Shown piece after piece: positions 6,570-50,300 of a stretch of DNA of 64,000 nucleotides. Under the pieces are notes generated by a model. The model saw nothing but the letters and a program-made list of their open reading frames with translations, did no database searches and was not told the origin of the DNA. The position numbers and the translations under genes were made by a program. Positions within the stretch are counted from its first letter, which is position 1. Each line of letters starts with the position of its first letter. Source of the stretch: an uncultured Methanosarcinales archaeon (GTDB lineage Archaea; Nanobdellota; Nanobdellia; Woesearchaeales; DSVV01); NCBI GenBank assembly GCA_964593285.1, contig CAZQHZ010000001.1, forward strand, positions 2,124 through 66,123. The letters run 5' to 3'.

Positions 6570-7625
<1,056 letters not shown>

Positions 7626-8728: not shown

Positions 8729-8730
8729 TT

Positions 8731-10439: not shown

Positions 10440-10510
10440 TTAATATTATTTAAAACAAACAGAAAATATTTAAATTAACTATGATTTATAAGAAATAATT
10501 TTTAAAAAAG

Positions 10511-14744: not shown

Positions 14745-14760
14745 TTTTTTCTTTGTTTTA
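14745..14760 (+). terminator. Oligo-T tract immediately after the tRNA (archaeal-type terminator)
   Basis: TTTTTTCTTTGTTTT directly follows the discriminator base. Confidence 0.4.
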
Positions 14761-14835
14761 TAATTTTTTAAAAATTATATCCTTTAGATTTCAAAATCAA
14801 TAAATATAAAAACAATTTAAAAATTCTTTAATTAA

Positions 14836-33519: not shown

Positions 33520-33777
33520 TTAGATAATATCTACTTTTTTAGAAATTGATTGTCCTGGCATTCCTCTTTCAAAAAGAACTCTTACAGCACCTTTATTTCC
33601 ATGTGCAAAAGTTATTTTTCCTTTGATTTCTTTGCCACCCTCGGTTGTGTATAAAACTTCTTTTCCAACTATTTGTGAAGTTTTCTCTTTACTATCAATA
33701 TTTTCAACCATTACAATCATTTGATTATCTTTTTGTCTTTTTACTGAAGATCTAAAATTCATTATTGTTCCTTTCAT
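33520..33777 (-). CDS. rpl35ae: Ribosomal protein L35Ae (eL33)
   Basis: MKGTIMNFRSSVKRQKDNQMIVMVENIDSKEKTSQIVGKEVLYTTEGGKEIKGKITFAHGNKGAVRVLFERGMPGQSISKKVDII is co-linear with archaeal L35Ae (...GKIVRVHGNSGAVRARFE.GLPGQALG..V). The listed ORF extends upstream; the real start is probably the MKGTIM Met at 33777. Confidence 0.85.
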   Translation of the reverse strand: MKGTIMNFRSSVKRQKDNQMIVMVENIDSKEKTSQIVGKEVLYTTEGGKEIKGKITFAHGNKGAVRVLFERGMPGQSISKKVDII

Positions 33778-33861
33778 GTTGCTTAGAAAAAATAAGCTAT
33801 TTAAATATTTATCGTTTTTATTTTTATAAATTACACAAAAGCAAAACATATTTATATTTAA

Positions 33862-34842
33862 TTGTTTCTTAAAATAAATATGCTTTTTAATAATAATGAG
33901 AAATATATAAAAAAACATTTAATAGATTATATAATATTTCAATTAAATCAAGGTTATGAATTTAATGATATTAAGACTATATTAATTAATTATGGATATT
34001 CTAGTTCTTTAATTAATGAAATAAAAAATGAAATTGATTTTAAAAATTTGAATATAAAAAAAAACAAAAATACATCAAAAACAAAATTATCAAAAGAAAT
34101 AAAACTTTATTTAGAAGAGCTAATTACTGATTTTATTTTAAAAGAATTAGAACAAGGATATAGTATTTCTGCTATAAAAAAAGCATTGATTAATTATGGG
34201 CATGATAAATATCTAATAGATGATATTGTTTTAAAAATGAATAATTCAAAACAAAATAAAAAAAATTTAATCACTGCAAAAGATTTATTGGATACTAGTA
34301 ATTTAAAATCTAATTTTAAAAAAACTTTTAAAAAAGAAAAAAAATTCAAATTTAAATTACCTTTGTTATTAAATTATTTTTTTTCAATAATTGCTATTTT
34401 GTTTATAATTTTTTTTTTAGTTATTAAAACAAATACTGAAATTTTTATTGTTTTTTTGAGTTTTCTGCCATCTATTTTAGCTATAACATTTTCTTATTTC
34501 ATATTTTTAAAAATAAAAAGTGAATCTAGTTTAAAAATCATACCTGTTTTTTCAGCATTAATTGCTATTTTCATTTTTGTTGGATTATTTTATTTGTTAA
34601 AAGATTTTTTTGTTTTATCAAATCCAGCAATTTTAATTATTTTAAATTTTATATTATCTTTAATTTTATCAACAGTTATTTGTTTTTTTAGTTTTATTGA
34701 AAATAAAAAAAATTGTAGTATAATAGAAAATAATCAATTTTCACTTGAAGATAAAAAAATATTTGATGATTTTGATAGAGAAGAAAAAAAATTAGAAAAT
34801 TTATTAAATAATGATAAATTTGAAAAAATTAAAAAAATATAA
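33862..34842 (+). CDS. Hypothetical membrane protein with an internally duplicated N-terminal soluble motif
   Basis: 326 aa; two copies of a ~30-aa unit (LNQGYEFNDIKTILINYGYSSSLINEI / LEQGYSISAIKKALINYGHDKYLIDDI) followed by ~4 TM helices. Confidence 0.4.
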   Translation: MFLKINMLFNNNEKYIKKHLIDYIIFQLNQGYEFNDIKTILINYGYSSSLINEIKNEIDFKNLNIKKNKNTSKTKLSKEIKLYLEELITDFILKELEQGYSISAIKKALINYGHDKYLIDDIVLKMNNSKQNKKNLITAKDLLDTSNLKSNFKKTFKKEKKFKFKLPLLLNYFFSIIAILFIIFFLVIKTNTEIFIVFLSFLPSILAITFSYFIFLKIKSESSLKIIPVFSALIAIFIFVGLFYLLKDFFVLSNPAILIILNFILSLILSTVICFFSFIENKKNCSIIENNQFSLEDKKIFDDFDREEKKLENLLNNDKFEKIKKI

Positions 34843-34844
34843 TT

Positions 34845-35645
34845 CTATTTTTGTTTATTTATTTTATATAACATTACAAATCCTATTATAATCATAATAA
34901 TACATAAAATTTGTCCCATTGTAAAATAATTTAATATATAACCTATTTGTTCATCGGGTTGTCTAATAAATTCTATTAAAAAGCGTAATGCTCCATAAAA
35001 AATTACAAATAGCCAAAAAATAATTCCATCTTTTAATTTTTTCTTGGTAGCTAAATAAAATAATGGAATAAAAATTAATATATTTTTTATTGATTCAAAA
35101 ATTTGCGAAGGAAATCTACATCCTTCAACATTATTAACATAACTACTTTTTGAATAATCTATACAAAAAATACCTTCATACATTCTACCATATAACTCTC
35201 CATTAATAAAATTACCAATTCTTCCAAGTGCTAATGCTAAAGTTAGTGGAATTATAGTAATATCTGCAAGCTTATAAAATTTAATTTTTTTTTTAACAGA
35301 AAAAATATATCCAAAAAAAACTGCTCCAATAAAACCACCATGAAAACTCATTCCACCTTGCCATATTTTTAAAATGGATAATGGGTCATTTAAAATTATC
35401 GAAGGATTATAAAAAATGAAATAAAATAATCTTGATCCAATAATCATTCCAAGTCCAAGATATAATAAATAATCTAAAATATCATCTTTTGTAAGTTTTA
35501 TATGTTTAACTTTTACCAAGTAATTCAATAAGAAATATGCAATGATAAAACCAATAATATAAAATAAACCATAATATCTAATTTCAAAACTACCAATATT
35601 TAATAATGTTGGATTAATATTGTGTGTAATATTATAAAAACTCAT
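34845..35645 (-). CDS. lgt: Prolipoprotein diacylglyceryl transferase (Lgt)
   Basis: 266 aa, polytopic; exact Lgt signature LGRIGNFINGELYGR (PROSITE G-R-x-[GA]-N-F-x-N-x-E-x2-G) plus an upstream ...GGMSFHGGFIG... segment. Confidence 0.8.
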   Translation of the reverse strand: MSFYNITHNINPTLLNIGSFEIRYYGLFYIIGFIIAYFLLNYLVKVKHIKLTKDDILDYLLYLGLGMIIGSRLFYFIFYNPSIILNDPLSILKIWQGGMSFHGGFIGAVFFGYIFSVKKKIKFYKLADITIIPLTLALALGRIGNFINGELYGRMYEGIFCIDYSKSSYVNNVEGCRFPSQIFESIKNILIFIPLFYLATKKKLKDGIIFWLFVIFYGALRFLIEFIRQPDEQIGYILNYFTMGQILCIIMIIIGFVMLYKINKQK

Positions 35646-35752
35646 TTTATATTAAAAATGTAACTAGTATTTATATTTTACAGAATTTTTTTATTATTTA
35701 ATAATGATTAAATTAAAAAATTTTTTAAATGCTTCTTATTTACTAGAAAAAT

Positions 35753-37492
35753 TTGAGGGTTTTTGAAATGGTTTTAAATGGTTTAAAAGAACAAACAAAA
35801 AGTTTTCGTGAAAAAATGAAAAATTACAACAATGTAATTATAGCATCTCATAAAAAGCCAGATGCGGATTCATTATTTTCGGTAAATTTTCTTGAAAAAA
35901 TATCTAAATTTTTTAATGAAAATTTAAATATTTATCCTGTTTTAAATGTTTCTGATGCCCCCTTAGATTGCTCTGAATTGATAAAAAAATATAATATAAG
36001 TTATTTTGATTCAGCAAATATTTTTGAAGATGATATAAATTCTATTGATGCAATAATTATTGCAGACACGCAATTTAATGAACGACTTTCTTTGCCAAAT
36101 TTTAAAAAACAAGATTCAAATGAAATAATTAATTTATATGATTATATTATAAATAATAAAAAAAAAATTGTTGATATTATCTGTCGAGACCACCATCTTA
36201 AAAATACAAACATAAAATATACATCTTCAATTATTGATTCAGCGTACAATTCAACAGCATCTCTTCTTTTAAAGGAATTTTTAGATACAAATTTTGTTAA
36301 AGAAGATTTAATTCAAGATGAGTTATTGTGCACTTTAGGTTATCAAGCACTTAGAGTTGATACTAGAAAATTTAAAAATATGGCTGAAGATGATGAGAAT
36401 GCAAGAAAAATATTTGGTTCTGGAAATTTAAATTCAAGATTTATCTATGAAATAAATAATCCTAAATTAGATGATGAAACTGCCGATTTATTTGGAATTA
36501 TGCATATGAAAAAAGCTAGAATGCATTATGCAGATTTAGTTACTTTTTGTTATTTAGGTGTAATTGAGCCAACACAAACAGATATTTTAGGTCAAGTTGC
36601 AGATAGTATGTTTAGATTTAAATCAACAAAAAACATCGCAATGGCATCTGCAGTAATAAAGCAAGATGATGACGACCAATATAAATTAGCAATGAGTATT
36701 AGATCAGAAGAGCCTGGGCAAAAAGTAAATGCAACAAAAGTTTCTAATTTATTTAATGGTAATGGTGATGAAAATAAAGCTGGTGCACAATTAGACCTAG
36801 GAATTTTTAAATATAGCGTTAAACATCCTGATTTTGAATCACTAATAAACGAAGAAATAGGTCAAACTATTGTTGGTTCAAAATTGTCAAATTTAGATGA
36901 AGATAAAAAACCAAATCCAACAATTTATGAAGATTCAAAAAAATTAGAAGAAATTATAGGTGCAGGCATGAATGAGCGTGATATTTCTCTTGATTTTGAT
37001 GTTTTATCAAAAATTAGATATACAGAACTTAGATCTAATAATAAATATTTAACTTTATCTGTAAATTTACACAAAGAGCCATTTGATAAAGCAGATATTA
37101 TTTCAGAAAATCAAATTCCATGTATTCTTGAAATAAATAGACAAATAGTTAATAGGTGGGGTACTAAAATTTATAGTGATGTTAATGCAAATTTAATTTT
37201 TGCATTAATTAATAAACCAGTTCAACCATATTTGTTTGGTATTTATTGTAGGGATAAAAAAGATGAGAAAAACGAAAAAGAAACAAGATTAATAAATGAT
37301 TTATTCGGTCCAATTATTACTGAGCAATATGACCATGTTGATAAAATAAATAATAAAGAATATTTATTAACTTTAGTTAAATCACCTATATTAAAATTAA
37401 ACTATACAGACCAAAGTTCTTTATTAATGAAATCTTTAGATTATGAAATGAAAGTTAGAACTGATAAAGCGATTGGTTCAAAAGAAATATAA
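35753..37492 (+). CDS. DHH-superfamily phosphoesterase (RecJ/Cdc45/GAN-like)
   Basis: 579 aa; motif I IIASHKKPDADSLFS, DHH motif ICRDHHLKNTN; the C-terminal half is divergent with no clean DHHA1 GGGH. Confidence 0.5.
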   Translation: MRVFEMVLNGLKEQTKSFREKMKNYNNVIIASHKKPDADSLFSVNFLEKISKFFNENLNIYPVLNVSDAPLDCSELIKKYNISYFDSANIFEDDINSIDAIIIADTQFNERLSLPNFKKQDSNEIINLYDYIINNKKKIVDIICRDHHLKNTNIKYTSSIIDSAYNSTASLLLKEFLDTNFVKEDLIQDELLCTLGYQALRVDTRKFKNMAEDDENARKIFGSGNLNSRFIYEINNPKLDDETADLFGIMHMKKARMHYADLVTFCYLGVIEPTQTDILGQVADSMFRFKSTKNIAMASAVIKQDDDDQYKLAMSIRSEEPGQKVNATKVSNLFNGNGDENKAGAQLDLGIFKYSVKHPDFESLINEEIGQTIVGSKLSNLDEDKKPNPTIYEDSKKLEEIIGAGMNERDISLDFDVLSKIRYTELRSNNKYLTLSVNLHKEPFDKADIISENQIPCILEINRQIVNRWGTKIYSDVNANLIFALINKPVQPYLFGIYCRDKKDEKNEKETRLINDLFGPIITEQYDHVDKINNKEYLLTLVKSPILKLNYTDQSSLLMKSLDYEMKVRTDKAIGSKEI

Positions 37493-37501
37493 AAAAAATA
37501 T

Positions 37502-40500
37502 TTATTCTTCTTTAATACTGATTTCAACTTCTTTTCCCTTAATTTTTTCACTAGATAAAATTTTATGATTTACTCCATCAATAAAAATTTCAATTGCACT
37601 AGCCCCAACTTTTTGCATAATTATTTCTGAATGTTTTGAAAGCATTTTTTCAAGTTCTTCATCGTTTGTTTTAATTCTTAAATTAATTAAATCTGTTTTT
37701 TTTAAATCATGTTTTTTCCTTAAAGTTTGAACTCTTCGCATAATCTCTCTTGCAAAACCTTCTGAATCTAATTCTTTATTTCTAGTTTTATCAATATATA
37801 TTTTTCCAAATTTAAATTTTATTTCAATTAAATGTTCTGGTAAATTTTTAATTATTTGAATATGTTTTTCTTTTAATGTTATTTCTTCTCCGTTAATTGT
37901 CATTTTTTGTCCTTCATTTTTTATTTTTTCAAGTAGTGAATCAAAATTCATAGACATAATTCTTTCAATTATTGTATCTTTTTTACTACCAAATTCTTTT
38001 CCAATTTCTGCCACATTTGGTTTAATTGTTGTTTGTCCTAATTCAAATTTATTGGTTGTTTTAATATTTTTAACATTTGTTTGGTTAATTATTATTTCTT
38101 TTAGTTTCTCAATTGAAGAAATTATCTTTTTTTCATTTGAAACAATTATGCATTCTTTTAATGGCCATCTTTGTCCAAGTTGTATTTTTTCTCTTCCATA
38201 TAAAATGGATTGAATTGCATCAAATGCAATTTCAAATTCTTCTTCAAGTTCAAAATTAATAAGTTCTTCATCATATTTTTCAAATTCAAATTCATGAATA
38301 CTTTTTTTTTCTAACTTTAATTCTTCTTTAAATTCTTGATAAATTGCTTCACTAATATATGGGCAAACCATTGAAAATAATTTTAGTGTTTTAAATAAAA
38401 CATCAAATATAACATTAAAGACTAGTTCTTTTTCTTTCTTTGTTCCAATAGATAATTTATCTCTATTTAACTGAATGTATTTTCTTGATAGTTCTAAGAA
38501 TACTTTCTCTAAAATTAAAGGTGCTTCATTTAATTTATACCTATCTAATTTTTCTTCAATTTCCTTAATTGATGAATTTAATTTTGAATAAATAAATTTT
38601 TCACTAATTCCAAAATCATTTTTATCAGGAATTTTTAATTCAATTTTTTCATTTTGAGCAAAATTTAAAATTAAATTTTTAATATTCCATAAAACTCCTA
38701 AATTTTTGTGCTTTAATTTCATATCATCAAAATTATAATTAATATCATTTCCAGGACTAGTTGATCCAATCATATAATATCTTAATGTGTCTGCTCCATA
38801 TTTTTCAATAACTTCCTCTGGTAAAATGTAATTTCCAAGTGATTTTGACATTTTCCTACCAAGAGAATCTTGAACAAATCCATGCATATAAACTGCTTTA
38901 AATGAAGGTTTTTGCATGCTAACCATTGATGCAACAAATAATAAATTAAACCATCCTCTAATTTGATCTATTCCTTCTAAAATAAAATCTGCAGGAAACA
39001 TTTTTTCAAATTTTTCTTTTTCTTGAGGAAAATTAAGACAATTCCATGACGCAGAGCCAGAATCAATCCAAACATCTAATACATCAGGTTCTCTAATCAT
39101 CTCACCACCACATTTACAATTCCATTTAACTTCATCAATCCATGGTTTATGTAAATCTTGTGGGATTTCGTTTGCTTTAACCTTAAGCTCATTAACTGAC
39201 CCTATTACTTCATATGTTTTACATTCATTACATACCCAAATTGGAAGTGGTGTACCCCAATAAATTTGTCTTGTAATTCCATTATCTCTTAAATTTTCAA
39301 GCCAAGAATCATAATTTTTAGAACCTGCATACTTTGGAATCCAATTTATTTCTTTGTTTATTTCCCGCATATTTTCTTTTAAATCTTCAATTTTGAAAAA
39401 CCATTGTTTTGTTGTTCGATAAATTATTGGTTTTTTACACCTCCAGCAGTGTGCATAATCGTGATTTATCTTTTGTTTAAATAATAACATGTCTTTTTTT
39501 TTTGAAAAATAATCAACAAACTTTTCATCATCAAGCTTTGCAGTATATCCTTTAAACACATTCATTTCTTTTGGAAATATACCCGACCTTGTTAAATTAT
39601 TAAATGGTTTTATTCCTTCCTTGTGTCCTACTTCATAATCTTCAGGCCCACACCCTGGAGCCATATGGACTAATCCAGAACCAGAAGTTGTAGTTACATA
39701 TTCTTTGCTTAATACAACGCTATGTATCTTTGGAGATTTTATTTTTAATTCATCATAAATTGGTTTTAATTCATCATTTAATGGGTGAATATACTTTAAT
39801 CCTTTTAATTTTTCTCCTTTAAATTCTTCAAGTATTTCATAATCTAATTCTAAATTTTCTTTTAAAATTTCTTTTACTAAATCTTTTGCAAGAATTAATT
39901 CTTCATTACTATTTTTTATTTTAACTTTTACATAAAATTCATCTGGATTTACCATAACTCCTAAATTAAAAGGTATTGTCCAAGGTGTTGTTGTCCATAT
40001 AACTAAATATTCATTTTCTGTGCCTTCAATTTTGAATTTTAAAAAAATAGAGTTATCATTAATATTTTCATATTCTAGTTCATGTTTTGCTAATGATGTT
40101 TCACAATTAGAACACCAAGTCATTGTTTTCTCTCCTTTATATAATCTATTATTTTCATGGGCTTTTTTAATAAGCCACCATTCACCTTCAATAAACTCTT
40201 TAGAAATAGGCTGGTATGCATTATCAAAATCCATCCAAACACCCATTTTTTTAAAATCTTCATTCATTAATTTCATATTTTTTAAGGCTGTTTTTTTACA
40301 TTCTTGTATAAATTTAGAAATTCCAATTTTTTTAATTTCATCCCTAGATTCAATGTTTAATTCTTTCATAGTCGCTTGCTCAATTGGCATTCCATGCATA
40401 TCATATCCAGCTCTATCCCATACACAAAATCCTTTCATTCTTTTATATCTTAAAATTAAATCTTTTAAACATTTATTCCAAGTAGTTCCAATATGAACTC

Positions 40501-40654
40501 TTCCAGAAGTATAAGGTGGTCCATCTAAAAAGTAAAACTTTTTTTTATCTTTGTTTTTATTTCTAACCTTATCAATAATTTTATTTTCATTCCAAAATTT
40601 GGTAGTATTTTCTTCAATTTCTTTAAAATCATAATTTTTTGCCATAATTTTCAC
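37502..40654 (-). CDS. ileS: Isoleucyl-tRNA synthetase (archaeal/eukaryotic type)
   Basis: 1050 aa; HIGH region FYFLDGPPYTSGRVHIGTTWNK, KMSKS as RKMSKSLGN, zinc knuckle WNCKCGGEM, and a CP1 editing domain. Confidence 0.9.
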   Translation of the reverse strand: MKIMAKNYDFKEIEENTTKFWNENKIIDKVRNKNKDKKKFYFLDGPPYTSGRVHIGTTWNKCLKDLILRYKRMKGFCVWDRAGYDMHGMPIEQATMKELNIESRDEIKKIGISKFIQECKKTALKNMKLMNEDFKKMGVWMDFDNAYQPISKEFIEGEWWLIKKAHENNRLYKGEKTMTWCSNCETSLAKHELEYENINDNSIFLKFKIEGTENEYLVIWTTTPWTIPFNLGVMVNPDEFYVKVKIKNSNEELILAKDLVKEILKENLELDYEILEEFKGEKLKGLKYIHPLNDELKPIYDELKIKSPKIHSVVLSKEYVTTTSGSGLVHMAPGCGPEDYEVGHKEGIKPFNNLTRSGIFPKEMNVFKGYTAKLDDEKFVDYFSKKKDMLLFKQKINHDYAHCWRCKKPIIYRTTKQWFFKIEDLKENMREINKEINWIPKYAGSKNYDSWLENLRDNGITRQIYWGTPLPIWVCNECKTYEVIGSVNELKVKANEIPQDLHKPWIDEVKWNCKCGGEMIREPDVLDVWIDSGSASWNCLNFPQEKEKFEKMFPADFILEGIDQIRGWFNLLFVASMVSMQKPSFKAVYMHGFVQDSLGRKMSKSLGNYILPEEVIEKYGADTLRYYMIGSTSPGNDINYNFDDMKLKHKNLGVLWNIKNLILNFAQNEKIELKIPDKNDFGISEKFIYSKLNSSIKEIEEKLDRYKLNEAPLILEKVFLELSRKYIQLNRDKLSIGTKKEKELVFNVIFDVLFKTLKLFSMVCPYISEAIYQEFKEELKLEKKSIHEFEFEKYDEELINFELEEEFEIAFDAIQSILYGREKIQLGQRWPLKECIIVSNEKKIISSIEKLKEIIINQTNVKNIKTTNKFELGQTTIKPNVAEIGKEFGSKKDTIIERIMSMNFDSLLEKIKNEGQKMTINGEEITLKEKHIQIIKNLPEHLIEIKFKFGKIYIDKTRNKELDSEGFAREIMRRVQTLRKKHDLKKTDLINLRIKTNDEELEKMLSKHSEIIMQKVGASAIEIFIDGVNHKILSSEKIKGKEVEISIKEE

Positions 40655-40974
40655 CCAAGTACATTAATTAAAGTAAATTTAAATTTTTTTACCTTATATT
40701 TTAAAAACAAGAATTATTAAATAATAAATAATATTTAAATATATCGTAGATAATTATGGAAATATTTTAACTATATACAAAAAATCACTTTATTTAGTTT
40801 TCTATTGGTAATGTTATTTTTTTAATCATTTTTTCTGATCTAATAATCAAATAATCATCTGTTGGAAAATTAATTCTTATCTGTTTTATTAAATCAGTAT
40901 TGTTTAATTCTTCAATAGTAATCATTACTTGATAATTTTTAAGTAATTTTATTAGTTGGGTTTTCTTAATATTT

Positions 40975-42006
40975 TTAAAAACTAATATTATCTAAAACAC
41001 CATGTGCATCATTAGATTTAATATATGGTTTTATTAAATTAAATAATTTTTTATTTTTTGAAGAAATGGTTGTAAGTAACATTTCTGTTTCATTATTGCT
41101 AATTCTTGCAAGACTATCTGCTTTTATTAATCCATATGGGTAGCCTAAGAAAACAGCATCGTTTGAGTAATATGCAAAATAGCTAACTACTTTTTTTATA
41201 TCTAACAATTTTGTTTGTTCTTTATAAATTTCTAATGTAAAAATATAATCTGATAATTTATGAAGTTTTAAAAAATAAATAATTGATTTTTGCATTTCAT
41301 TTTTTAAATCAATAAAATCATCATAATACCAAATTTCTGCTGGTGCAATTTTAGAAATTGATGCTAAAAGACAATTTCCATTATTTGTAATAGCATTATT
41401 AGTTTTTAAAATACTACTTATTAAAATATTGTTTTTAATTGCAATTTCATATAATTTATCCAACTTTTTTTTCTCAAAATCAAATAAAGTTTTAAGCGTC
41501 CCATCAAGTAAAATTATATCTCCTTCATTTAAATAATTTATAGATTCAATAGAAGTTTTAATTTCTAAGATTCTTCTTGATAAATCAATCATTTTTGAAA
41601 TGCTAAATGGTTCATTGTTAATTGAAAAATTTTTATCTTTTGAATTAATAATAATTTCATCAATTAATTGAGAATTTTGATTATATTTGAAATATTTTGT
41701 TTTATAATAAATTTTTTCATTTTCAAAAAAAGTATATGCAAAAACAAAAAATTGATTTGTTATTATTTTTTTTATTTTTTTATTTTTATAAATAATTGAT
41801 GCAGATTTAATAAAACCTAAGGAAAATGAAGGAGAATCAATTAAAACACTACTTCCTCCATCTACAAAACAAATTTGATTATTAAAACATTCTTTTTTTG
41901 TTTTAAAAAAATTATTTTTATCTATTTTATATGAATTATAAATTTCATTCGTTTTATCTTTGGTATTAGTCAAATAATTGTCTAATTCATTTAACATTTC
42001 ATCCAT
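40975..42006 (-). CDS. NurA-like nuclease domain protein (standalone)
   Basis: 343 aa; NurA-type acidic motifs ...ICFVDGGSSVLIDSPSFSLGFIKSASII... and ...GDIILLDGTLKTL...; no herA, mre11 or rad50 nearby. Confidence 0.45.
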   Translation of the reverse strand: MDEMLNELDNYLTNTKDKTNEIYNSYKIDKNNFFKTKKECFNNQICFVDGGSSVLIDSPSFSLGFIKSASIIYKNKKIKKIITNQFFVFAYTFFENEKIYYKTKYFKYNQNSQLIDEIIINSKDKNFSINNEPFSISKMIDLSRRILEIKTSIESINYLNEGDIILLDGTLKTLFDFEKKKLDKLYEIAIKNNILISSILKTNNAITNNGNCLLASISKIAPAEIWYYDDFIDLKNEMQKSIIYFLKLHKLSDYIFTLEIYKEQTKLLDIKKVVSYFAYYSNDAVFLGYPYGLIKADSLARISNNETEMLLTTISSKNKKLFNLIKPYIKSNDAHGVLDNISF

Positions 42007-42058: not shown

Positions 42059-42183
42059 TGCGGGGAGTAGGACTCGAACCCACGTAAGCACTAAGCTAAC
42101 AGGTGTCTTTATTTCATTGTAATTTTACTCATCACACCTAAAATACCTAAGCCTGTCCCGTTTGACCACTCCGGCATCCCCGC
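42059..42183 (-). tRNA. tRNA-Leu(UAG), type II (long variable arm), with a 41-nt intron at position 37/38
   Basis: Reverse complement: acceptor GCGGGGA/TCCCCGC plus A; D arm CCG-GAGTGGTCAAA-CGG; anticodon stem ACAGG/CCTGT; loop CTTAGG|intron|A; 15-nt variable arm with AGC/GCT stem; T arm GTGGG-TTCGAGT-CCTAC. Intron TATTTTAGGTGTGATGAGTAAAATTACAATGAAATAAAGAC. Confidence 0.8.
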
Positions 42184-42312: not shown

Positions 42313-42753
42313 ATGGTTAAAAAAAACAATTCTAAATATTGTTTAGTAGATTTTAAAAAAGCACAAGCAATGTCAACTGAAACATACATAGCTATTTTAA
42401 TTTTTTTAAGTGTTATAGTTTTATTTTATTCTCTATTTGCATTTACTGATATAGATCAAACACGATCAAAAAATATAATTTTTACAGTTGAAAAAATAAA
42501 ATCTGATTTGGTTTTTGATAAAGGTTTCTTAGATAATGATGATTTAGAATTTCTATTACCCCTAGATTGTTCAGATTTAAAAGATTATTTTCAAGTTAGA
42601 AATGATTTTTGTATCTTTTTAGTTGATTCAAATGATAAAATAATACCTTTTAGAAACATTACTCATTACAAATATGGAATTGGCTGTAAAGATGTTTCTT
42701 TTAATAATGGTACAACAAAATTTGAGTGTGGTAAAATTAGAGAAATTGAATAA
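42313..42753 (+). CDS. Putative pilin-like protein (N-terminal hydrophobic helix after a short charged leader)
   Basis: 146 aa; ...KKAQAMSTETYIAILIFLSVIVLFYSLFAF... is compatible with an archaeal class III (prepilin) signal (K-A | Q...); first gene of the pilus-like locus. Confidence 0.3.
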   Translation: MVKKNNSKYCLVDFKKAQAMSTETYIAILIFLSVIVLFYSLFAFTDIDQTRSKNIIFTVEKIKSDLVFDKGFLDNDDLEFLLPLDCSDLKDYFQVRNDFCIFLVDSNDKIIPFRNITHYKYGIGCKDVSFNNGTTKFECGKIREIE

Positions 42754-42789
42754 AAATTTCTAAAAATTTGTTTATAATATTTAGTAATA

Positions 42790-43335
42790 ATGAAATTAAT
42801 AAAAAAATTCAAAAAAAGAGGGTATTTTTTTATATTTGATGTAGGTTTATCTATATTTGTTTTACTTTTGGGGTTAATAATTGTTTTTTCATATTATTTT
42901 AATGTTTATTCAACTCATCAATCTTCTTATTTTTCAACTAATATAATGGATATTTTATCAAATACAAAAATTTATCAAAGCAATAATAATTATTTTGGTT
43001 TTAATGGTGATTTACATAAAAATGGCAATATAACTAATATTCAAAATTCTTTACTAACCCAAATGTCTGAATTTTATTATAGATCTGAAGAAAAAGATTG
43101 TGATTACTGTCTAAATTTAATTAATAATTCTTTTAATCAAATTACAGATTTATTAATTTCTGAAAATTATTATTATATAGTTAAAATAAATAATACTGTT
43201 GTTTTTAATACTACTAAAGATATTCCATTTTATAATTCAACTCAATTGATACCATCAAAAAAAATAGTATATGGAATTTATGAAAATAATGAAATATTTG
43301 GTCCATATGGTTTTGAGGTATGGGCATGGCGTTAA
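42790..43335 (+). CDS. Putative archaeal type IV pilin-like protein
   Basis: 181 aa; MKLIKKFKKRGYFFIFDVGLSIFVLLLGLIIVF: a KRG|Y class-III-signal-like junction followed by a ~22-residue hydrophobic helix. Confidence 0.45.
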   Translation: MKLIKKFKKRGYFFIFDVGLSIFVLLLGLIIVFSYYFNVYSTHQSSYFSTNIMDILSNTKIYQSNNNYFGFNGDLHKNGNITNIQNSLLTQMSEFYYRSEEKDCDYCLNLINNSFNQITDLLISENYYYIVKINNTVVFNTTKDIPFYNSTQLIPSKKIVYGIYENNEIFGPYGFEVWAWR

Positions 43336-44348
43336 TAAAAAATAAAAAATCAATTTTTTTTACAATAGTTAGCATTTCTTTAGTTTCTTTATTTTTAATT
43401 ACATTTATGGGTGTTTCAAATATCAGTTTTAATAGGCCTGAATTTTTAATTGAAACAGAATTTAATATTTTACATTCTTATACAAAAGAATTAAAAGAAA
43501 ATTTTATAAAAGATGTTTTAATTATAAATTCTATAAATTCACTTGAAGAAATGCTAGATTATGTTGATGATAATAATGGTGTAATAGATAATTTTCAAGC
43601 TAATTTTTCTAATTTAATGATTGATGGCTCGATAAATATTGATGGAAATGAAATAAATATTTCTCAAAATATTTCAAGCTATGTAAATGATTTAGATAAT
43701 GAAGCAAAAAGTTTATTTGGAATAAAATCTAATACTACAATTCATTCAATTGATATAATTCAGTATGAACCATGGAAAGTAAATATTTTAGCTAATATTT
43801 CAATAAATGCATCTTTATTAAATATTTCATACAATATAAATGATTTATTTAATTATTCAATATCTATAACTGGATTTAGAGATCCAGTGTATTTACGAAA
43901 TTTTAATTATAATCATTCAATAAAAAAAACAAAGTTAAATAAATTTGATACAATAGATGATGTTTTAAGGCTTATAGAAGAACGTGAATATAGACACATT
44001 CCTGATAGTCCAAGTTTTATCATGAGATTTGAGAATAAAACAACAAACTCTAATTGTTGTGGGATACAATCATTTATAAATACAACTTTTGCTCAAAAAA
44101 TAATAAATTCAAATCCAAATTATAACAGTCCTTTAAATTTTTCTTTTGTGGATTATTATTCAGCTAATAGAGTAAATTCATGTGCAGATGCTCCAGATTC
44201 ACTTGAAGATTATGAAGTATATAATATTACTGGAATCAGTAATCAAAGTATAGCAATAGGTTTTAATTTAGATGTAAATTTTATAGATTTATATAATATT
44301 TCTAATGATGTAGATCAAGAAATTTGTAAAATTGATGATTTTATATAA
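43320..44348 (+). CDS. Pilus-associated protein with N-terminal TM helix and large Asn/Ser-rich extracellular domain
   Basis: 342 aa; ...KNKKSIFFTIVSISLVSLFLITF... then N-glycosylation-sequon-rich (NxS/T) sequence; overlaps the previous gene by 16 nt. Confidence 0.35.
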   Translation: MGMALIKNKKSIFFTIVSISLVSLFLITFMGVSNISFNRPEFLIETEFNILHSYTKELKENFIKDVLIINSINSLEEMLDYVDDNNGVIDNFQANFSNLMIDGSINIDGNEINISQNISSYVNDLDNEAKSLFGIKSNTTIHSIDIIQYEPWKVNILANISINASLLNISYNINDLFNYSISITGFRDPVYLRNFNYNHSIKKTKLNKFDTIDDVLRLIEEREYRHIPDSPSFIMRFENKTTNSNCCGIQSFINTTFAQKIINSNPNYNSPLNFSFVDYYSANRVNSCADAPDSLEDYEVYNITGISNQSIAIGFNLDVNFIDLYNISNDVDQEICKIDDFI

Positions 44349-44355
44349 TAATAAA

Positions 44356-44387
<32 letters not shown>

Positions 44388-44441
44388 ACTACTATATGTT
44401 AGTTATAAATCTTTTTATATATAAAAACATCTAAAATAAAA

Positions 44442-44888
44442 ATGGAAACTGATATTTTAAAAACTGATGTTGATAAATTTATTAAATTAGTTAGACAAAA
44501 AGAAAAAATAACTGTATCTGAAGCTTCAAAATTATTAAATTTAAGTGAAAAAATAGTTCAAGCATGGACTGATTTTTTAGTTGAAGAGAAAATTCTAGGC
44601 ACAGAATATAAATTTACCACCCAGTATATTTATTTAAATTATGATAAAGATTTAGAATTAAATAAAAGTAATGATGCCGAGGAAGATATAAAAGAAATGT
44701 TTTTTAGAAAAGCTAGATTAAAACAAATTTCTGAATTAAAAATAAAAGAAATGTGGAAAAAATATCTAAATGAAAATCAATTTAATATAAAAGAAAAATT
44801 TTTTAAAAAATGCAAGGAAAAATTAATTCCTGATGAAAAAGTTGATGAATTATGGTTAAAATATTTTAGTATTTTAAAAGAGGATTAA
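44442..44888 (+). CDS. Small soluble protein with possible N-terminal winged-helix
   Basis: 148 aa; ...ITVSEASKLLNLSEKIVQAWTDFLVEEKILGTEYK... looks wHTH-like; K/E-rich tail. Confidence 0.3.
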   Translation: METDILKTDVDKFIKLVRQKEKITVSEASKLLNLSEKIVQAWTDFLVEEKILGTEYKFTTQYIYLNYDKDLELNKSNDAEEDIKEMFFRKARLKQISELKIKEMWKKYLNENQFNIKEKFFKKCKEKLIPDEKVDELWLKYFSILKED

Positions 44889-44890
44889 AA

Positions 44891-45733
44891 ATGGATATAG
44901 ATGATTTTTTAGATTTAGAAATTTCAAAACAAGGAATGAAGGCAGGTTCTTCAGGGAAATTAAAAAACAATGATGAATTGTTTAGTGAATTAGATAATTT
45001 AAAACATGTAGTTGCCCAAAAAGATTTTTTTACAGCACTTAATAATTTAATAAATTTAAAACATAAATATCACGATTTAACAAAAAAACAATTAAATGAA
45101 AATAGATTTATTTTTAATGAATTAATTAAGATTAATTCAGATTTAATTTCAAAAATTGATTTAATTAAACAAGATTTATATAAAAAAATAAATCTTATTC
45201 AAAATTTAATTGTTGATGCTCAAACTAAATTAAATGAAGGAAATATTAGTGAAGCTAATAAAATTTATTTACAAACAAAAAACTTAATTAAAGATATTCC
45301 TGATATTTTAATTGAAGAAAAAAAAGCATTAAATAATCAATTAACTGCATTTTATGTTTCTTATTCTGTTTTAATACAAAAAAAATCTGAACAAATATTT
45401 ATTGAAAAAAAAGATTATCTTTTAAATGTAATTAAAAAAGCATATGAATATATAAAAAGTGGAAATAAATTTCCATTGAAAACTTTTGAGCATATTAATA
45501 AATTATTTAATGATTTACCAGAAGGACATTTATATCAAAAAGCAATAATATACAATGATATTTTAAAATTATTTAGAACAGCTGCACTTTCTGAAGAAAA
45601 TTCAAATATAGTAAATACAATCATTTCACAGACTTTAAATTTAAATAATGAGCATTTAGTAAAAAAACCTACAAATTTAGATTCAGAAAAGAAAGCCATT
45701 AATTTAGATTCACAAAAAAATATAAATAATTAA
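44891..45733 (+). CDS. Coiled-coil hypothetical protein in the pilus locus
   Basis: 280 aa, helical with heptad-like periodicity; no P-loop. Confidence 0.35.
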   Translation: MDIDDFLDLEISKQGMKAGSSGKLKNNDELFSELDNLKHVVAQKDFFTALNNLINLKHKYHDLTKKQLNENRFIFNELIKINSDLISKIDLIKQDLYKKINLIQNLIVDAQTKLNEGNISEANKIYLQTKNLIKDIPDILIEEKKALNNQLTAFYVSYSVLIQKKSEQIFIEKKDYLLNVIKKAYEYIKSGNKFPLKTFEHINKLFNDLPEGHLYQKAIIYNDILKLFRTAALSEENSNIVNTIISQTLNLNNEHLVKKPTNLDSEKKAINLDSQKNINN

Positions 45734-45739
45734 GGGGTT

Positions 45740-47242
45740 TTGATGTCAAAAAATAATAATATAGAATTTCAATTAATTGAGAAAGATAAATTAACAGCTA
45801 ATGAATGGCTTGATTCTTATAAATTGAATGTTAATAATGTGTTAGTCGATGTAAATATATTTTTTAGAGATGAAGATTCTATACCTATCTATGAAGTAAA
45901 TATTGTTAATATGACTAAAAATACTAAAATTATTTTAGAAAAAATTAGAGAAGAATTTATCTCAAAAGTTAATATCAATACTTCTGAAATTTCTGATTCA
46001 AAAGGATTAGATAAATTAAAAGATTTGTTTAGAAAAGAATTAATAGTTTTACTTAAAAAATATTTTCCAAGTTTAGATAATAAAACACAAGATATGCTTA
46101 TGAATTATGTTATTGAACAAAATTTGGGTCTTGGATATATTGAAATTTTGCTTAAAGATAATTTAATTGAAGAAGTTGTTATAAATAATGCAAAAGAGCC
46201 TGTATGGATTTATCATGTAAAATTTGGTTGGATGAAAACAAATATCTTAATTCCAACAGAATCAAGAATTAGACATTTTGCAACAATTATTGCAAGAGAT
46301 GCAATTAAAGAAATTACCAATTTAAATCCATTAATGGATGCACATTTATTGTCAGGAGATAGAGTAAATGCAACGCTTCATCCAGTTTCTAGTTTTGGAA
46401 ATACATTAACTATTAGAAAATTTTCATCAATCCCATGGACCATCACAAGAATGATTAAATCAAATACATTAGATTATAAAACTGCTGCAATTTTATGGTT
46501 ATGTATTCAATATGAATTTTCAATAATAATTGCAGGTGGTACTGGTTCTGGTAAAACTTCTATGTTAAATACGGTTGCTGGTTTTTTTGCATCAAATCAA
46601 CGAATTATATCTATTGAAGATACAAGAGAATTAAAATTGCCACCACAATTACACTGGGTTCCATTAGCAACTCGACAATCTAATCCCGAAGGAAAAGGTG
46701 AAGTTTCTATGCTTGATTTAGTTATCAATTCACTTAGGATGAGACCTGATAGAATTATAATGGGTGAAATTAGACGAAAAAAAGAAGCAGAAGTTTTATT
46801 TGAAGCAATGCACACAGGCCATAGTGTTTATGGAACATTTCATGCAAATACTGCAAGAGAAGTTATTCAAAGACTTACAAATCCACCAATCGATTTACCA
46901 AAAGCATTAGCTTCAGCAGTAAATTTAATTGCTGTTCAAAATAGGAATAGAAGAAATAATACTAGAAAATTATTTGAATTAGCAGAAGTATTGCCCGATG
47001 GTGAAGTAAATATACTTTATAGGTATAATATTTTGGAAGATAAAATAAAAAAAGTTAATGATTTTAAAGTAATAAATAAATTACTTGAATTATATGCTGG
47101 TTTTGATGATAATAAAATAAATGAAGAATTAAAAAAACGAGAAAATATTTTAAAATGGATTGTTGAAAAAAACATTAATTCATTAGAAAAAATAGGACAA
47201 GTAATGTCTAATTTTTATCGTGATAAATTCAAATTTGAATAA
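45740..47242 (+). CDS. Type IV pilus/archaellum assembly ATPase (FlaI/ArlI-TadA/VirB11 superfamily)
   Basis: 500 aa; Walker A IIAGGTGSGKTS, Asp box/Walker B ...RPDRIIMGEIR, His box EAMHTGHSVYGTFHA. Confidence 0.85.
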   Translation: MMSKNNNIEFQLIEKDKLTANEWLDSYKLNVNNVLVDVNIFFRDEDSIPIYEVNIVNMTKNTKIILEKIREEFISKVNINTSEISDSKGLDKLKDLFRKELIVLLKKYFPSLDNKTQDMLMNYVIEQNLGLGYIEILLKDNLIEEVVINNAKEPVWIYHVKFGWMKTNILIPTESRIRHFATIIARDAIKEITNLNPLMDAHLLSGDRVNATLHPVSSFGNTLTIRKFSSIPWTITRMIKSNTLDYKTAAILWLCIQYEFSIIIAGGTGSGKTSMLNTVAGFFASNQRIISIEDTRELKLPPQLHWVPLATRQSNPEGKGEVSMLDLVINSLRMRPDRIIMGEIRRKKEAEVLFEAMHTGHSVYGTFHANTAREVIQRLTNPPIDLPKALASAVNLIAVQNRNRRNNTRKLFELAEVLPDGEVNILYRYNILEDKIKKVNDFKVINKLLELYAGFDDNKINEELKKRENILKWIVEKNINSLEKIGQVMSNFYRDKFKFE

Positions 47243-47250
47243 AATTAAGG

Positions 47251-48084
47251 GTGATTTTTATTGTTGATTTAATTAATTTAATTAAACCTATGTTTCCAGA
47301 TTTAGAATCTAATATAAAAAAGGCTAAATTAAATCAAAAACCAGAAGATTTTATTAAAAAATCAGTAAATGTTGGATTATTTTTTTCTACATTTTCTCTA
47401 ATTATTTCTTTTTTTATTTTAAGCACGCTTAATAAAAATTTATTAGTATTAATACCTATTTTTATTGTTTCTTTCTTCATTATTTTTTTTATAATTATAA
47501 ATTCACCAATTGTTACAATAAAAAAAAGACAAAGAGAATTAGACAAAGAAATATTATTTGCAGGAAGATTTTTACAAATTAAGTTAAAATCAGGTAAACC
47601 ACTACTTAATTGTTTAATTGAAGTTTCTAATGGTTATGGTGTTTGTGGAAAATATTTTAAAGAAATAACTGATGATATCAATATGGGTAAAAGTATTGAA
47701 AAAGCCCTAGAAAATGCAATGATTTATTCACCATCTGATAAAATGAAAAGAATTTTATTTCAAATAAACAATTCATTAAAAATAGGAATTGATGTTGGTG
47801 AATCACTTGATAGAACACTTAATGAAATAACAAAAGAACAAATAAATGATATACGAATTTATACAAAAAAATTAAATTCTTTAAGTTTGTTTTATTTAAT
47901 GCTTGCAATTGTTGTTCCGGCTATTGGAACAGCAATTGTTGTAGTTATTGGTGCACTAATTGGTTTATTAACAGATGATCAAGGAGCAAAGCAATTATTT
48001 TATGCGATTTGTATTTTGATTATTATTTTACAATTTATATTTATTGCTGTCTTTAAAAATACAAGATTAACGGTGAATATATAA
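47251..48084 (+). CDS. Pilus platform membrane protein, first half (single T2SSF domain; FlaJ/TadB-like)
   Basis: 277 aa; 2 TM, cytoplasmic T2SSF-type helical domain (...KSIEKALENAMIYSPSDKMKRILFQINNSLKIGIDVGESL...), then 2 TM. Confidence 0.65.
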   Translation: MIFIVDLINLIKPMFPDLESNIKKAKLNQKPEDFIKKSVNVGLFFSTFSLIISFFILSTLNKNLLVLIPIFIVSFFIIFFIIINSPIVTIKKRQRELDKEILFAGRFLQIKLKSGKPLLNCLIEVSNGYGVCGKYFKEITDDINMGKSIEKALENAMIYSPSDKMKRILFQINNSLKIGIDVGESLDRTLNEITKEQINDIRIYTKKLNSLSLFYLMLAIVVPAIGTAIVVVIGALIGLLTDDQGAKQLFYAICILIIILQFIFIAVFKNTRLTVNI

Positions 48085-49130
48085 TGAAATTTTTATTTGC
48101 ATATGAATTTGGAAAATCTTTTATTCCAGATAAAATTAGACCAAATTTGCGAAAATATTTATTTAAAGCAGGTATTGTAAATGAACCTTATTCTTTTTTT
48201 GGAATTTTATTTTATTTTTCTTTAATTTTTTCAATTTCTTTTTATTTTCTATATATTAAATTGTTATTAGATCAGTTTGTTGGACTTGAAAATATTACTA
48301 ATATTTTTTTAAATTTTTTAATAACTTTTAGTTCGATTGTTTTACTAAATTTTTTAATTATAGGTTTTTTTATAGTGATTGTTTATTTTTTTATTGATTT
48401 AATAATTTATAATAGAACTAAAAAATTAGAAGAAATATTACCTTATTTTTTTGATAATTTATCAGCTAATTTAAAATCTGGTATGTCTTTTGATAATGCA
48501 TTATTTATGTCAATAAAACCTGAATTTGGTATTTTAGCAGATGAAATTGCAATAACTGCAAAAAAAGTAATGACTGGAAATGATATTGAATTAGCACTTG
48601 AAGAGTTTTCTAAAAAATATGACTCACCAATGCTTAAGCGTTCAATGGAATTAATTATCAATCAATTAAAAGAAGGAGGTGCAGTTTCTGATATTATTGA
48701 TAAGATTGCTTTTAATTTAAAAAATACAATGGAATTAAAACAAGAAATTAGAACTTCTGTATATAGTTATGTATTATTTATATCAATAATTGTTATTTTA
48801 ATTTCTCCAGTTTTATTTGCATTATCGCAAAATTTATTTGAAATTATTAAAAGCGTTGTTAATGTTTTAGCATTTTCAATGGGTTCAACTGATGCAGTAG
48901 GTTTTAGTGTAAGTGAAATTACAATCACTAAAGAAGTTTTTAATTGGTTTTCATTTATTGCATTAAGTATTATTGCAATTTTTTCTTCAATGATTGTTTC
49001 AATTATAGAAAAAGGTGATATAAAATCAGGAGTAAAATATATTCCTATGTATTTTATCGGTTCGCACGTTGTTTATTTAATTGCATCCAATGTTTTAGGG
49101 ATTGTTTTTGGTGGATTTATTATGAGTTAA
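48084..49130 (+). CDS. Pilus platform membrane protein, second half (single T2SSF domain; FlaJ/TadC-like)
   Basis: 348 aa; same TM-T2SSF-TM layout (...NDIELALEEFSKKYDSPMLKRSMELIINQLKEGGAVSDII...); start overlaps the previous stop (ATGA). Confidence 0.65.
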   Translation: MKFLFAYEFGKSFIPDKIRPNLRKYLFKAGIVNEPYSFFGILFYFSLIFSISFYFLYIKLLLDQFVGLENITNIFLNFLITFSSIVLLNFLIIGFFIVIVYFFIDLIIYNRTKKLEEILPYFFDNLSANLKSGMSFDNALFMSIKPEFGILADEIAITAKKVMTGNDIELALEEFSKKYDSPMLKRSMELIINQLKEGGAVSDIIDKIAFNLKNTMELKQEIRTSVYSYVLFISIIVILISPVLFALSQNLFEIIKSVVNVLAFSMGSTDAVGFSVSEITITKEVFNWFSFIALSIIAIFSSMIVSIIEKGDIKSGVKYIPMYFIGSHVVYLIASNVLGIVFGGFIMS

Positions 49131-50300
49131 TTTATTGTTAATATTTTTTATTGAAATCAAAGGAAAATCTACTATGCTTTTTAATAACCGTGAAAAATGT
49201 TCTGTTATGTAGTTTAAATGTCTAAAAATAGGTAAAATTTTTGGATTAAAAAGATTTGGTATTTTTTCAATTAATTCTACATGTTCAATTCCAATTTTAC
49301 CATAATATAATTTATTTAAATTATTTCCATTTTTTATGAATTTTTTTATTAAAATATATCCTTTAAGATAATTTATATCCTTAGTACAAGCACCAGCTTT
49401 AGTTGTATCACCAAGGCCGCGTTTAGCTCTTAATGTTAATCTAAAAGCCGTATCTTTATTAAAATATTTTCTTAAATTTTCATAAGTTTCTCTAAATGAA
49501 TATTTTAATGCAAAATCTATTGCAATAACTCTTCCAGCATATATTTTTAAAATATAATCATTCAAACAATCATTAATTTCTTCATTATAAACAGCAAGTC
49601 CTTCTTCTGTTTTTAAATATCCTAAAAGTCCTCTTTTAAAAAATAAATAGGGTTGCATTTTTCCGTTTTCAAATCTTGCAACATGTGTTCCTATTTCATG
49701 TACTATTAATCGCTTTAGAAAATTCTCAGAAAATTTCATATCTTTTTTAATATAAATTGTCATTTTATTTGTATTAACAGCAGCTTTTGAAACCATTTCT
49801 TTTTCCTTTACATTCCAAGGAAATCCATATTTTAAAAAAGCAAATTTAAATTTATTAACAACTTGTTTTGATGTATATATTTCTGTTTCTTTTTTAAATT
49901 TAATATGCATAAATTTTTTTGCTTCATTTAATAATTTTTTATTTGGCGAACCATAAATTTTTTTTGAATATTTAGTAAATTTAACATTATCTTTTCTATA
50001 TTGTAGTAGATATGTTTTATCAATGTAATTTTGTTTAATTTCTTCTAATATTTTTCCAATTATAGTATTATTTGTTTTAATTTCTTTTAATTCATTTCGA
50101 ATTTCTTTTAAATTTTCTTTATATTCACTATATTTAAAAATTGGATTGTAATTAATATTTTCAAAAAATTTTTTTTTTTCAGTTTCAACATTTATTGGAT
50201 TAATTGCATAAAATGATAATTTTTTACTTATATTATCTAATTTGAGATCAATTTTATGTAATTTATTAAAAAATAAATCTTTAAATTTAAAATTTACCAT
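49095..50300 (-). CDS. DUF1704 / QEGLA-motif family putative zinc metallopeptidase
   Basis: 401 aa; HExxH-like LIVHEIGTHVARFENG and an EEGLAVYNEE (EGLA) motif; 3' end overlaps the platform gene's 3' end by 36 nt (convergent). Confidence 0.55.
   Translation of the reverse strand: MVNFKFKDLFFNKLHKIDLKLDNISKKLSFYAINPINVETEKKKFFENINYNPIFKYSEYKENLKEIRNELKEIKTNNTIIGKILEEIKQNYIDKTYLLQYRKDNVKFTKYSKKIYGSPNKKLLNEAKKFMHIKFKKETEIYTSKQVVNKFKFAFLKYGFPWNVKEKEMVSKAAVNTNKMTIYIKKDMKFSENFLKRLIVHEIGTHVARFENGKMQPYLFFKRGLLGYLKTEEGLAVYNEEINDCLNDYILKIYAGRVIAIDFALKYSFRETYENLRKYFNKDTAFRLTLRAKRGLGDTTKAGACTKDINYLKGYILIKKFIKNGNNLNKLYYGKIGIEHVELIEKIPNLFNPKILPIFRHLNYITEHFSRLLKSIVDFPLISIKNINNKLTHNKSTKNNP

Follow-up and report, generated by a model that had tools for sequence, protein, structure and literature searches.

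The DNA analyzed here, referred to below as the window, is a stretch of 64,000 nucleotides (64 kb) of contig CAZQHZ010000001.1, labeled as an uncultured Methanosarcinales archaeon and classified by GTDB within the Woesearchaeales. The gene under study is an open reading frame (ORF) on its minus strand, at 34845..35645, that encodes a prolipoprotein diacylglyceryl transferase (Lgt). Our best explanation, to which we assign a probability of about 0.8, is that this ORF encodes the functional Lgt of a very AT-rich DPANN archaeon and that it came from bacteria long ago, in one or a few transfers, and has since been inherited vertically, has acquired the base composition of its host, and has been kept under selection. 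The family membership of the protein, its catalytic residues and fold, and the archaeal location and age of the gene are shown by the evidence that follows.

Lgt family membership, catalytic residues, and predicted fold

34845..35645, minus strand: lgt coding sequence, 266 amino acids plus stop, with ATG at 35645 and the stop codon at 34845-34847 (Pfam, TIGR00544, 5azb, AlphaFold)
35187..35225, minus strand: Lgt signature motif G141-RIGNFINGELY-G153 (GRIGNFINGELYG), holding R142, N145, E150, and G153, the equivalents of E. coli R143, N146, E151, and G154
35334..35357, minus strand: GGMSFHGG (arm-2/HGG motif) with H102, the equivalent of the essential E. coli H103 (alignment; PMC4728403)
34953..34985, minus strand: RFLIEFIRQPD with R221, E225, and R228, the equivalents of E. 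coli R239, E243, and R246 in the hydrogen-bond network of the catalytic center (alignment; PMC4728403)
35571..35573, minus strand: Y25, the equivalent of E. coli Y26 (alignment; PMC4728403)
35118..35165, minus strand: extracytoplasmic head loop C161-IDYSKSSYVNNVEG-C176, with a Cys pair present in 45/48 archaeal-set sequences

The translated ORF matches positions 1-239/240 of the Pfam LGT profile PF01790 at 2.7e-68 (230.3 bits against a cutoff of 24.9), scores 211.7 bits on the lgt equivalog TIGR00544 (cutoff, 118.9), and matches E. coli Lgt (PDB 5azb) at 1.3e-43. Judged by these matches, it is a full-length, true Lgt. The first-pass annotation had claimed an exact Lgt signature, and the string LGRIGNFINGELYGR indeed occurs in the translation, with PF01790 and TIGR00544 backing the assignment. 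A degenerate back-translation of the core, GRIGNFINGELYG, matched the window at a single place (35188-35225, minus strand, 0 mismatches) and had 0 matches across 100 shuffles, so the signature match is far beyond chance. The pattern G-R-x-G-N-F-x-N-x-E-x-x-G lies, as in other Lgt proteins, at the end of the fourth transmembrane helix; in E. coli Lgt it has been written G142RLGNFINGELWG154 (PMC4728403).

The essential residues and catalytic hydrogen-bond network of E. coli Lgt were defined in the crystal structure paper (PMC4728403). To locate their equivalents, one profile alignment was made of the 48 archaeal-set sequences, which include the window protein, and 74 bacterial Lgt sequences. The equivalents of E. 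coli Y26, H103, D129, R143, N146, E151, and G154 are identical in the window Lgt and in 48/48 sequences of the archaeal set, and those of Y235, R239, E243, and R246 are identical in the window Lgt (Y217, R221, E225, and R228) and in 43 to 47 of the 48. The conservation of all the catalytic residues argues that the window protein still works as an Lgt. Y26 of E. coli hydrogen-bonds the sn-2 ester oxygen of phosphatidylglycerol (PMC4728403). Elsewhere in the cavity the archaeal set shows shifts: E. coli G138 is replaced by Ala in 39/48 sequences, M100 by Leu in 37/48, and E202 by Ala in 17/48.

The subgroup to which the window Lgt belongs has an insertion in the head loop. The Cys pair C161/C176 in this loop is likely to form a disulfide; it is also present in Nitrospira Lgt and in few other bacteria, and it may be a hint to the donor lineage.

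The predicted structure agrees with the polytopic architecture that had been noted from the sequence. An AlphaFold model of the window Lgt, computed with 20 relatives, has seven long transmembrane helices (pLDDT, 84.3; pTM, 0.82), and its sole significant Foldseek match in the PDB was E. coli Lgt (5azb; E, 2.3e-13; TM, 0.82/0.77). The model therefore has the seven-helix transmembrane Lgt fold with an extracytoplasmic head domain.

Location of lgt in an archaeal contig

The guanine-plus-cytosine (GC) content of the window is 16-28% throughout. At 21.5% GC and 10.1% GC at third codon positions (GC3), lgt is close to the averages of the window's 65 genes (22.2 ± 4.1% and 9.7 ± 2.4%, respectively), and its codon-usage distance is below the mean of window genes of similar length. 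The features that place the gene in its archaeal setting are the following:

33520..33918, minus strand: ribosomal protein L35Ae, a marker of archaea and eukaryotes (match at 1e-16), ~0.9 kb from lgt
33862..34842, plus strand: convergent neighbor predicted to cross the membrane with five helices and to have a repeated soluble domain at its N terminus; L083, the closest relative, preserves its synteny with lgt
35646..35752: AT-rich intergenic region of 107 bp between lgt and the divergent DHH-family gene (ORF coordinates)
35753..42006: conserved archaeal neighborhood, in the same order beside lgt in L083 and L084, comprising the next three genes
35753-37492, plus strand: DHH-family protein
37502-40654, minus strand: IleRS
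40975-42006, minus strand: NurA
14627-14744, plus strand: tRNA, 118 nucleotides
42059-42183, minus strand: tRNA, 125 nucleotides

L083 and L084 are two Joint Genome Institute (JGI) contigs from independent assemblies whose Lgt is 70% identical to that of the window, and the order NurA-IleRS-DHH-lgt-membrane protein is repeated in both. A 54%-identical Lgt is encoded on a 1.84-Mb contig among genes for aS21, EF-1beta, aIF2-gamma, S6e, and archaeal flagellin, and in other relatives lgt adjoins archaeal flagellin, NurA, translin, or FEN1. The window itself further encodes two archaeal proteins, a PUA/DUF1947 protein and OapC. Each of the two tRNAs spans the full 71-position Rfam model, and both must carry introns (~45-55 nucleotides) because their lengths are 118 and 125 nucleotides; ARAGORN reported no tRNA at all in the 64-kb window, leaving both intron-containing tRNAs undetected. 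The archaeal setting had originally been argued from L35Ae, tRNA introns, and FlaI, and all three were recovered.

A bacterial segment joined to the archaeal contig by misassembly or misbinning would also account for lgt in this place: Lgt is typically a bacterial gene, and two 2-kb windows over 33-36 kb have a raised tetranucleotide distance (z, ~1.8-1.9). The tetranucleotide maximum lies elsewhere, however, at 21 kb, and the 33-36-kb region contains two membrane protein genes and is skewed in composition for that reason. The GC, GC3, and codon usage of lgt fit the window; L35Ae lies 0.9 kb off one side of the gene and DHH, IleRS, and NurA lie on the other; the same gene order occurs in the two JGI assemblies, and archaeal contexts are found in the 1.84-Mb contig and several others. 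Moreover, the closest labeled bacterial Lgt among the matches listed is only ~45% identical. Composition, a check proposed in the first-pass annotation, and synteny in independent assemblies both speak for a native archaeal gene, and a chimera or contaminant, which we consider highly improbable, is excluded for practical purposes.

The immediate surroundings suggest how lgt is organized. Its 3′ end meets the 3′ end of the convergent gene, and lgt thus appears to be monocistronic; the 107-bp intergenic region presumably contains the lgt promoter. The L35Ae Pfam domain corresponds to residues 48-131 of the called ORF, and translation probably begins at Met48, near 33777. As called, the ORFs of L35Ae (33520-33918, minus strand) and of the membrane protein (33862-34842, plus strand) overlap by 57 nucleotides. 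Because the L35Ae domain begins only at residue 48, this is probably an ORF-calling artifact and not an overlap of the real genes.

In the window, in L083, and in the Woesearchaeota contig L005 (ileS at 5620-8796; Lgt only 46% identical), lgt is located ~1-2 kb from ileS. In E. coli, ileS is the classical operon partner of lspA. The linkage of lgt to ileS may be coincidental.

Relatives and age of the gene

The exact 266-amino-acid sequence is already in NCBI, unnamed. Two members of the same 90%-identity cluster (MFW6220356.1 and MFP4402807.1), one from a Nanoarchaeota and one from a Candidatus Woesearchaeota metagenome-assembled genome, are named prolipoprotein diacylglyceryl transferase there. 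Among the 120 best-matching relatives, identity ranges from 52 to 70%, and each of the 10 with a named organism comes from Woesearchaeota or Nanoarchaeota. Scanning species-representative genomes yielded at least 7 archaeal-labeled genomes with 40-49% identity over the trimmed alignment, among them one labeled Methanosarcinales, perhaps through a binning error. A metagenome scan with the window protein, whose listing was dominated by low-complexity AT-rich peptide matches, yielded at least 8 relatives among the matches listed, 6 of them at 37-41% identity. The nearest labeled bacterial Lgt sequences among the matches listed, from Geobacter/Desulfuromonadales, Acidobacteria, and Nitrospirota, are 41-45% identical.

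In a neighbor-joining (NJ) tree of 102 taxa, the archaeal-labeled and window sequences came together in a single clade (bootstrap, 82%) lying among the bacterial Lgt sequences. After the addition of 147 unlabeled sequences, the closest 50%-identity cluster representatives, archaeal monophyly was not recovered; the archaeal sequences formed two groups (35 and 54 tips), both free of bacterial-labeled sequences. Of the 150 closest representatives of 50%-identity clusters, at least about 70 belong to these two groups, which contain archaeal-labeled sequences. No particular bacterial donor lineage is supported by the NJ trees. We conclude that the pattern is best explained by one or a few ancient transfers from bacteria to archaea, after which the gene would have undergone long vertical diversification in Woesearchaeota/Nanoarchaeota. 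The number is given as one or a few because the 82% monophyly was lost in the enlarged taxon set, and the transfer is taken to be ancient because the nearest labeled bacterial Lgt is only ~45% identical. The first-pass annotation had posed horizontal acquisition and bacterial-style lipoprotein anchoring as an either-or. Acquisition is borne out by the NJ trees and identities, but the choice between them falls away, as both can hold.

A noteworthy sequence came from L010 (CAZTTX010000014.1), a contig labeled uncultured Methanosarcinales with 46% GC on which lgt adjoins an M50 peptidase and an AlaX-like gene. Its Lgt is 40% identical to that of the window and groups with DPANN sequences. Either this is a misbinned DPANN contig or Lgt is present in archaea outside DPANN.

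A Lit-family gene and candidate substrates near lgt in relatives

In two relatives, the start of lgt is overlapped by a gene of the Lit family:

L001 (Nanoarchaeota UBA9640), 9355-10008, plus strand: Lit-family gene, overlapping the start of lgt at 9995-10762
L092 (Nanoarchaeota contig), 8001-8642: Lit-family gene, overlapping the start of lgt at 8635-9402

L092 and L001 are diverged contigs (protein 66% identical), and the Lit-family gene is downstream of FEN1 in both. The gene product matches PF07314 at 1.1e-31 over positions 1-176/176 and passes the cutoff of TIGR01906 (90.3 bits against 74.8), whereas its score on the Lit equivalog NF051877 (59.8 bits) falls short of the cutoff of 400. The catalytic dyad of Bacillus cereus Lit is His85/His153 (PMC8275575), and both residues, together with the flanking aromatic residues, are retained in the alignment to 7b0o. 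These measures place the gene beside lgt in the Lit family, with its dyad intact, but do not establish it as a Lit equivalent. Lit shifts the acyl chain esterified at sn-2 of a diacylglyceryl-cysteine onto the free alpha-amino group (PMC8275575). If the homolog acts like Lit, the anchor would be ester linked and the signal peptide would be removed in those archaea, and the overlap of the two genes thus points to ester-linked, bacterial-type lipid anchors. The window itself contains no Lit-family gene. Another family member is encoded among archaeal genes (PolB and Endo_dU) in L093, from Woesearchaeota GCA_016935175.1.

Candidate substrates were found on one lgt contig, L085 (Woesearchaeota GCA_016185755.1). 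A DUF411 protein with a canonical lipobox, MNSKKLIFVGLVTLLFVISAC/NKS (…VISAC/NKS), is encoded at 14657-15121 on the plus strand, 4 kb from lgt, within a copper/metal-handling gene cluster. A second, probable lipobox precursor of 185 amino acids, MNRLAAALAAVYVAAAAYGC/ATRG, is encoded at 5461-6018 on the minus strand and has a weak, subthreshold match to the Lpp/OprI alanine zipper.

Proposed activity, lipid donor, and alternative explanations

In bacterial lipoprotein maturation, Lgt acts first, followed by LspA (signal peptidase II) and, optionally, Lnt or Lit. For the window protein, enzymatic activity, substrates, lipid donor, and bacterial-style diacylglyceryl anchoring are inferred, and the proposed mechanism follows that of E. 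coli Lgt. The seven-helix protein would bind a phosphatidylglycerol-type lipid in its central cavity, as E. coli Lgt does, and R142 and R221 would activate the bond joining the phosphate to the glyceryl C3. Attack on this bond by the thiol of the lipobox cysteine in an exported preprotein would then yield a thioether-linked diradylglyceryl anchor and release glycerol phosphate.

Several observations weigh against a functional, vertically inherited Lgt of this kind. Besides the loss of archaeal monophyly in the enlarged tree, no LspA (PF01252) was found among the six-frame ORFs of the 64-kb window or in 101 further loci, searched with the HMMER filters off and with a profile made from E. coli LspA, which matched the PDB LspA chains, and two PDB sequences; a Pfam search of the window membrane proteins likewise gave no Peptidase_A8. 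No convincing lipobox preprotein was found among the ~65 window genes. In ~270 kb of related archaeal sequence, a small sample of low power, lipobox matches were no commoner than control patterns; relative to control residues, there was an approximately two-fold lipobox excess in bacterial loci and none in archaeal loci (517 ORFs, low power). Pfam searches of the window proteins revealed no phospholipid synthesis gene in the 64 kb. Finally, archaeal membranes normally contain diether lipids built on sn-glycerol-1-phosphate, and these might not be suitable donors for a bacterial Lgt. Linkage of lspA to lgt is not to be expected, because the bacterial loci around lgt also gave no LspA match, and the absence of LspA, lipobox, and lipid genes says little, as 64 kb covers only a minor fraction of the genome.

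Other candidates for maturation enzymes were considered. A 172-amino-acid protein with five predicted transmembrane helices (8731-9249) was rejected as a divergent LspA, having no Pfam/NCBIfam match and no LspA Asp motifs. The CN_hydrolase genes near lgt in L089-L091 are very unlikely to encode Lnt, as their products are only ~280-300 amino acids long; Lnt proteins have ~500 amino acids and a transmembrane domain. The window also encodes a presenilin-type signal peptide peptidase, an intramembrane aspartyl protease (6570-7625, minus strand), and an SppA-type S49 peptidase (10511-11485, plus strand). That signal peptide processing of these two types would matter if the genome is without LspA is pure speculation.

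With regard to the lipid donor, a diacyl lipid is somewhat more likely than an archaeal diether because of the Lit linkage and the unchanged ester-contacting residues. Some Woesearchaeota have genes for bacterial fatty acid synthesis and glycerol-3-phosphate dehydrogenase, along with hints of bacterial hosts (PMC8204110, Castelle et al.), which would fit a donor lipid of bacterial type. The enzyme may instead have adapted to archaeal lipids and transfer a diphytanylglyceryl (archaeol) group from archaetidylglycerol to the lipobox cysteine, thereby taking the place in these DPANN that AliA/AliB have in Haloferax. The host is, after all, an archaeon; the archaeal lipoproteins studied so far bear thioether-linked archaeol (PMC12462473); a UbiA-family prenyltransferase weakly similar to digeranylgeranylglyceryl phosphate (DGGGP) synthases is encoded two genes from lgt in L083; and the cavity positions corresponding to G138, M100, and E202 are shifted in the archaeal set. 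Yet Y26 and R143, which contact the ester oxygens of the donor in E. coli Lgt, show no change, though catalysis requires them as well, and archaeal lipids have the opposite glycerol stereochemistry. In addition, lgt overlaps the Lit-family gene in two relatives, and the known Lit reaction depends on an ester-bound acyl chain at sn-2, absent from diethers; the bacterial fatty acid and glycerol-3-phosphate dehydrogenase genes reported in Woesearchaeota (PMC8204110) also speak for another donor. On this evidence, an archaeol donor is less likely but a serious rival.

It is far less probable that the gene is a relic or encodes an Lgt-fold protein with another function, such as some other lipid or glycerol-phosphate transfer. 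The searched window sequence yielded neither LspA nor lipobox substrates, and DPANN genomes are reduced and often retain partial pathways, as such an explanation would have it. The essential Lgt residues are nonetheless invariant or nearly so across sequences down to ~40% mutual identity, which is not expected of a relic and suggests the same chemistry. Furthermore, at least one canonical lipobox protein is encoded near lgt in a relative, and in a subclade lgt is overlapped by a gene of the Lit family, which acts on lipoproteins. A functional Lgt thus remains the preferred explanation. By extension, much of the Woesearchaeota/Nanoarchaeota may run a bacterial-type lipoprotein pathway consisting of Lgt and, in some lineages, the product of an overlapping Lit-family gene. 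Because Lit chemistry requires an sn-2 ester acyl chain, such archaea would need ester-linked diacylglycerol phospholipids, either made by themselves or obtained from bacterial hosts. We offer this extension tentatively, judging it somewhat more doubtful than probable.

Implications

Lgt is a well-known family, of which this gene is an ordinary member; the interest of the gene comes from its bearing on membrane lipids and lipidation machinery. What the analysis provides is a canonical, apparently active Lgt firmly set in a DPANN genome, one of a diverse archaeal set. If the enzyme is active, archaeal lipoprotein lipidation is not confined to one machinery, and the donor lipid becomes a testable readout of DPANN membrane composition that would tell whether some Woesearchaeota produce lipids of bacterial type or live on bacteria. 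If a bacterial-type pathway does operate, the published statement that archaea have no Lgt would be contradicted, and lgt would mark, at the genetic level, DPANN archaea whose membranes are mixed or of bacterial type or whose hosts are bacteria.

Other genes in the window

A type IV pilus/archaellum-like locus occupies 42313-49130 on the plus strand and is syntenic in L083. It includes a FlaI-like ATPase (45740-47242), two FlaJ-like T2SSF membrane proteins, two soluble proteins, and three pilin-like proteins, each with one predicted N-terminal transmembrane helix and two of them without a Pfam match. Adjoining this locus is a gene for a 401-amino-acid protein (49095-50300, minus strand) that matches PF08014 (MATCAP) at 3.5e-52; this family takes its name from the eukaryotic microtubule-associated tyrosine carboxypeptidase.

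The anaerobic ribonucleotide reductase NrdD (865 amino acids; 18113-20710, minus strand) is fused to an NrdR-type zinc ribbon at its N terminus and to two ATP-cone domains, such that a regulator-like module is carried on the enzyme itself. Its activase, an NrdG-like radical SAM protein, is probably encoded by the ORF at 17064-17774. Two further families are represented by a VCA0040-like/DUF368 protein (913-1836, plus strand; 5e-61) and a VTT/DedA-domain protein (54553-55209, plus strand). The DUF368 and DedA families are implicated in bacterial polyprenyl-phosphate recycling, and the carriers handled by the window proteins would presumably be dolichyl- or polyprenyl-phosphate. At 14132-14581 on the plus strand lies a gene for an RlmH-family SPOUT methyltransferase (PF02590, 3e-46). 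RlmH is typically a bacterial rRNA methyltransferase, which makes this another bacterial-type gene in the archaeal window.

Comparison with known lipidation systems

The closest characterized system is E. coli Lgt (5AZB/5AZC, EC 2.5.1.145). The window protein is ~32% identical to it and shares the seven transmembrane helices, the signature, the HGG motif, and the essential residues, and the window model superposes on it at a TM of 0.82. The two differ in length (266 versus 291 amino acids) and in the head loop between the signature and the RxPSQ motif, which has 24 residues in the window protein and ~40 in E. coli. The window loop carries a conserved Cys pair that E. coli Lgt lacks, and the host is an archaeon with no LspA seen in the 64-kb window. 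The bacterial sequences from Geobacter/Desulfuromonadales, Acidobacteria, and Nitrospirota do not fall within the archaeal groups of the NJ trees, and Nitrospira Lgt shares the W-C...C-R-H-P-S-Q cysteine pair with the archaeal set.

In Haloferax volcanii, AliA/AliB (arCOG02177/02178) have the same proposed task of joining the lipobox cysteine to a glycerolipid through a thioether. They are a family apart from Lgt, with marginal PF01790 similarity (HHpred, 29%) and two conserved arginines reported to be common with Lgt (PMC12462473). An AliA-type identity of the window protein was ruled out by its PF01790 match at 2.7e-68.

Two papers (PMC6098224 and PMC12462473, the latter being the 2025 study in which AliA/AliB were identified) state that no Lgt, Lsp, or Lnt homolog is known in any archaeal genome and use this absence to argue that archaeal lipids need separate lipidation machinery. 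Full-text literature searches found no paper discussing Lgt in DPANN lineages. The view that a canonical Lgt is generally not found in archaea, adopted in the first-pass annotation, agrees with these papers but not with the many Woesearchaeota/Nanoarchaeota Lgt sequences already annotated. The window protein belongs to this group (e.g., MFW6220356.1, MFP4402807.1, and MBI2657207.1), which has the same annotated function and is known from automatic annotation only. The archaeal Lgt group was already annotated in the databases but apparently overlooked in the literature searched. As far as the sequences compared here indicate, Lgt is not rare in this archaeal lineage.

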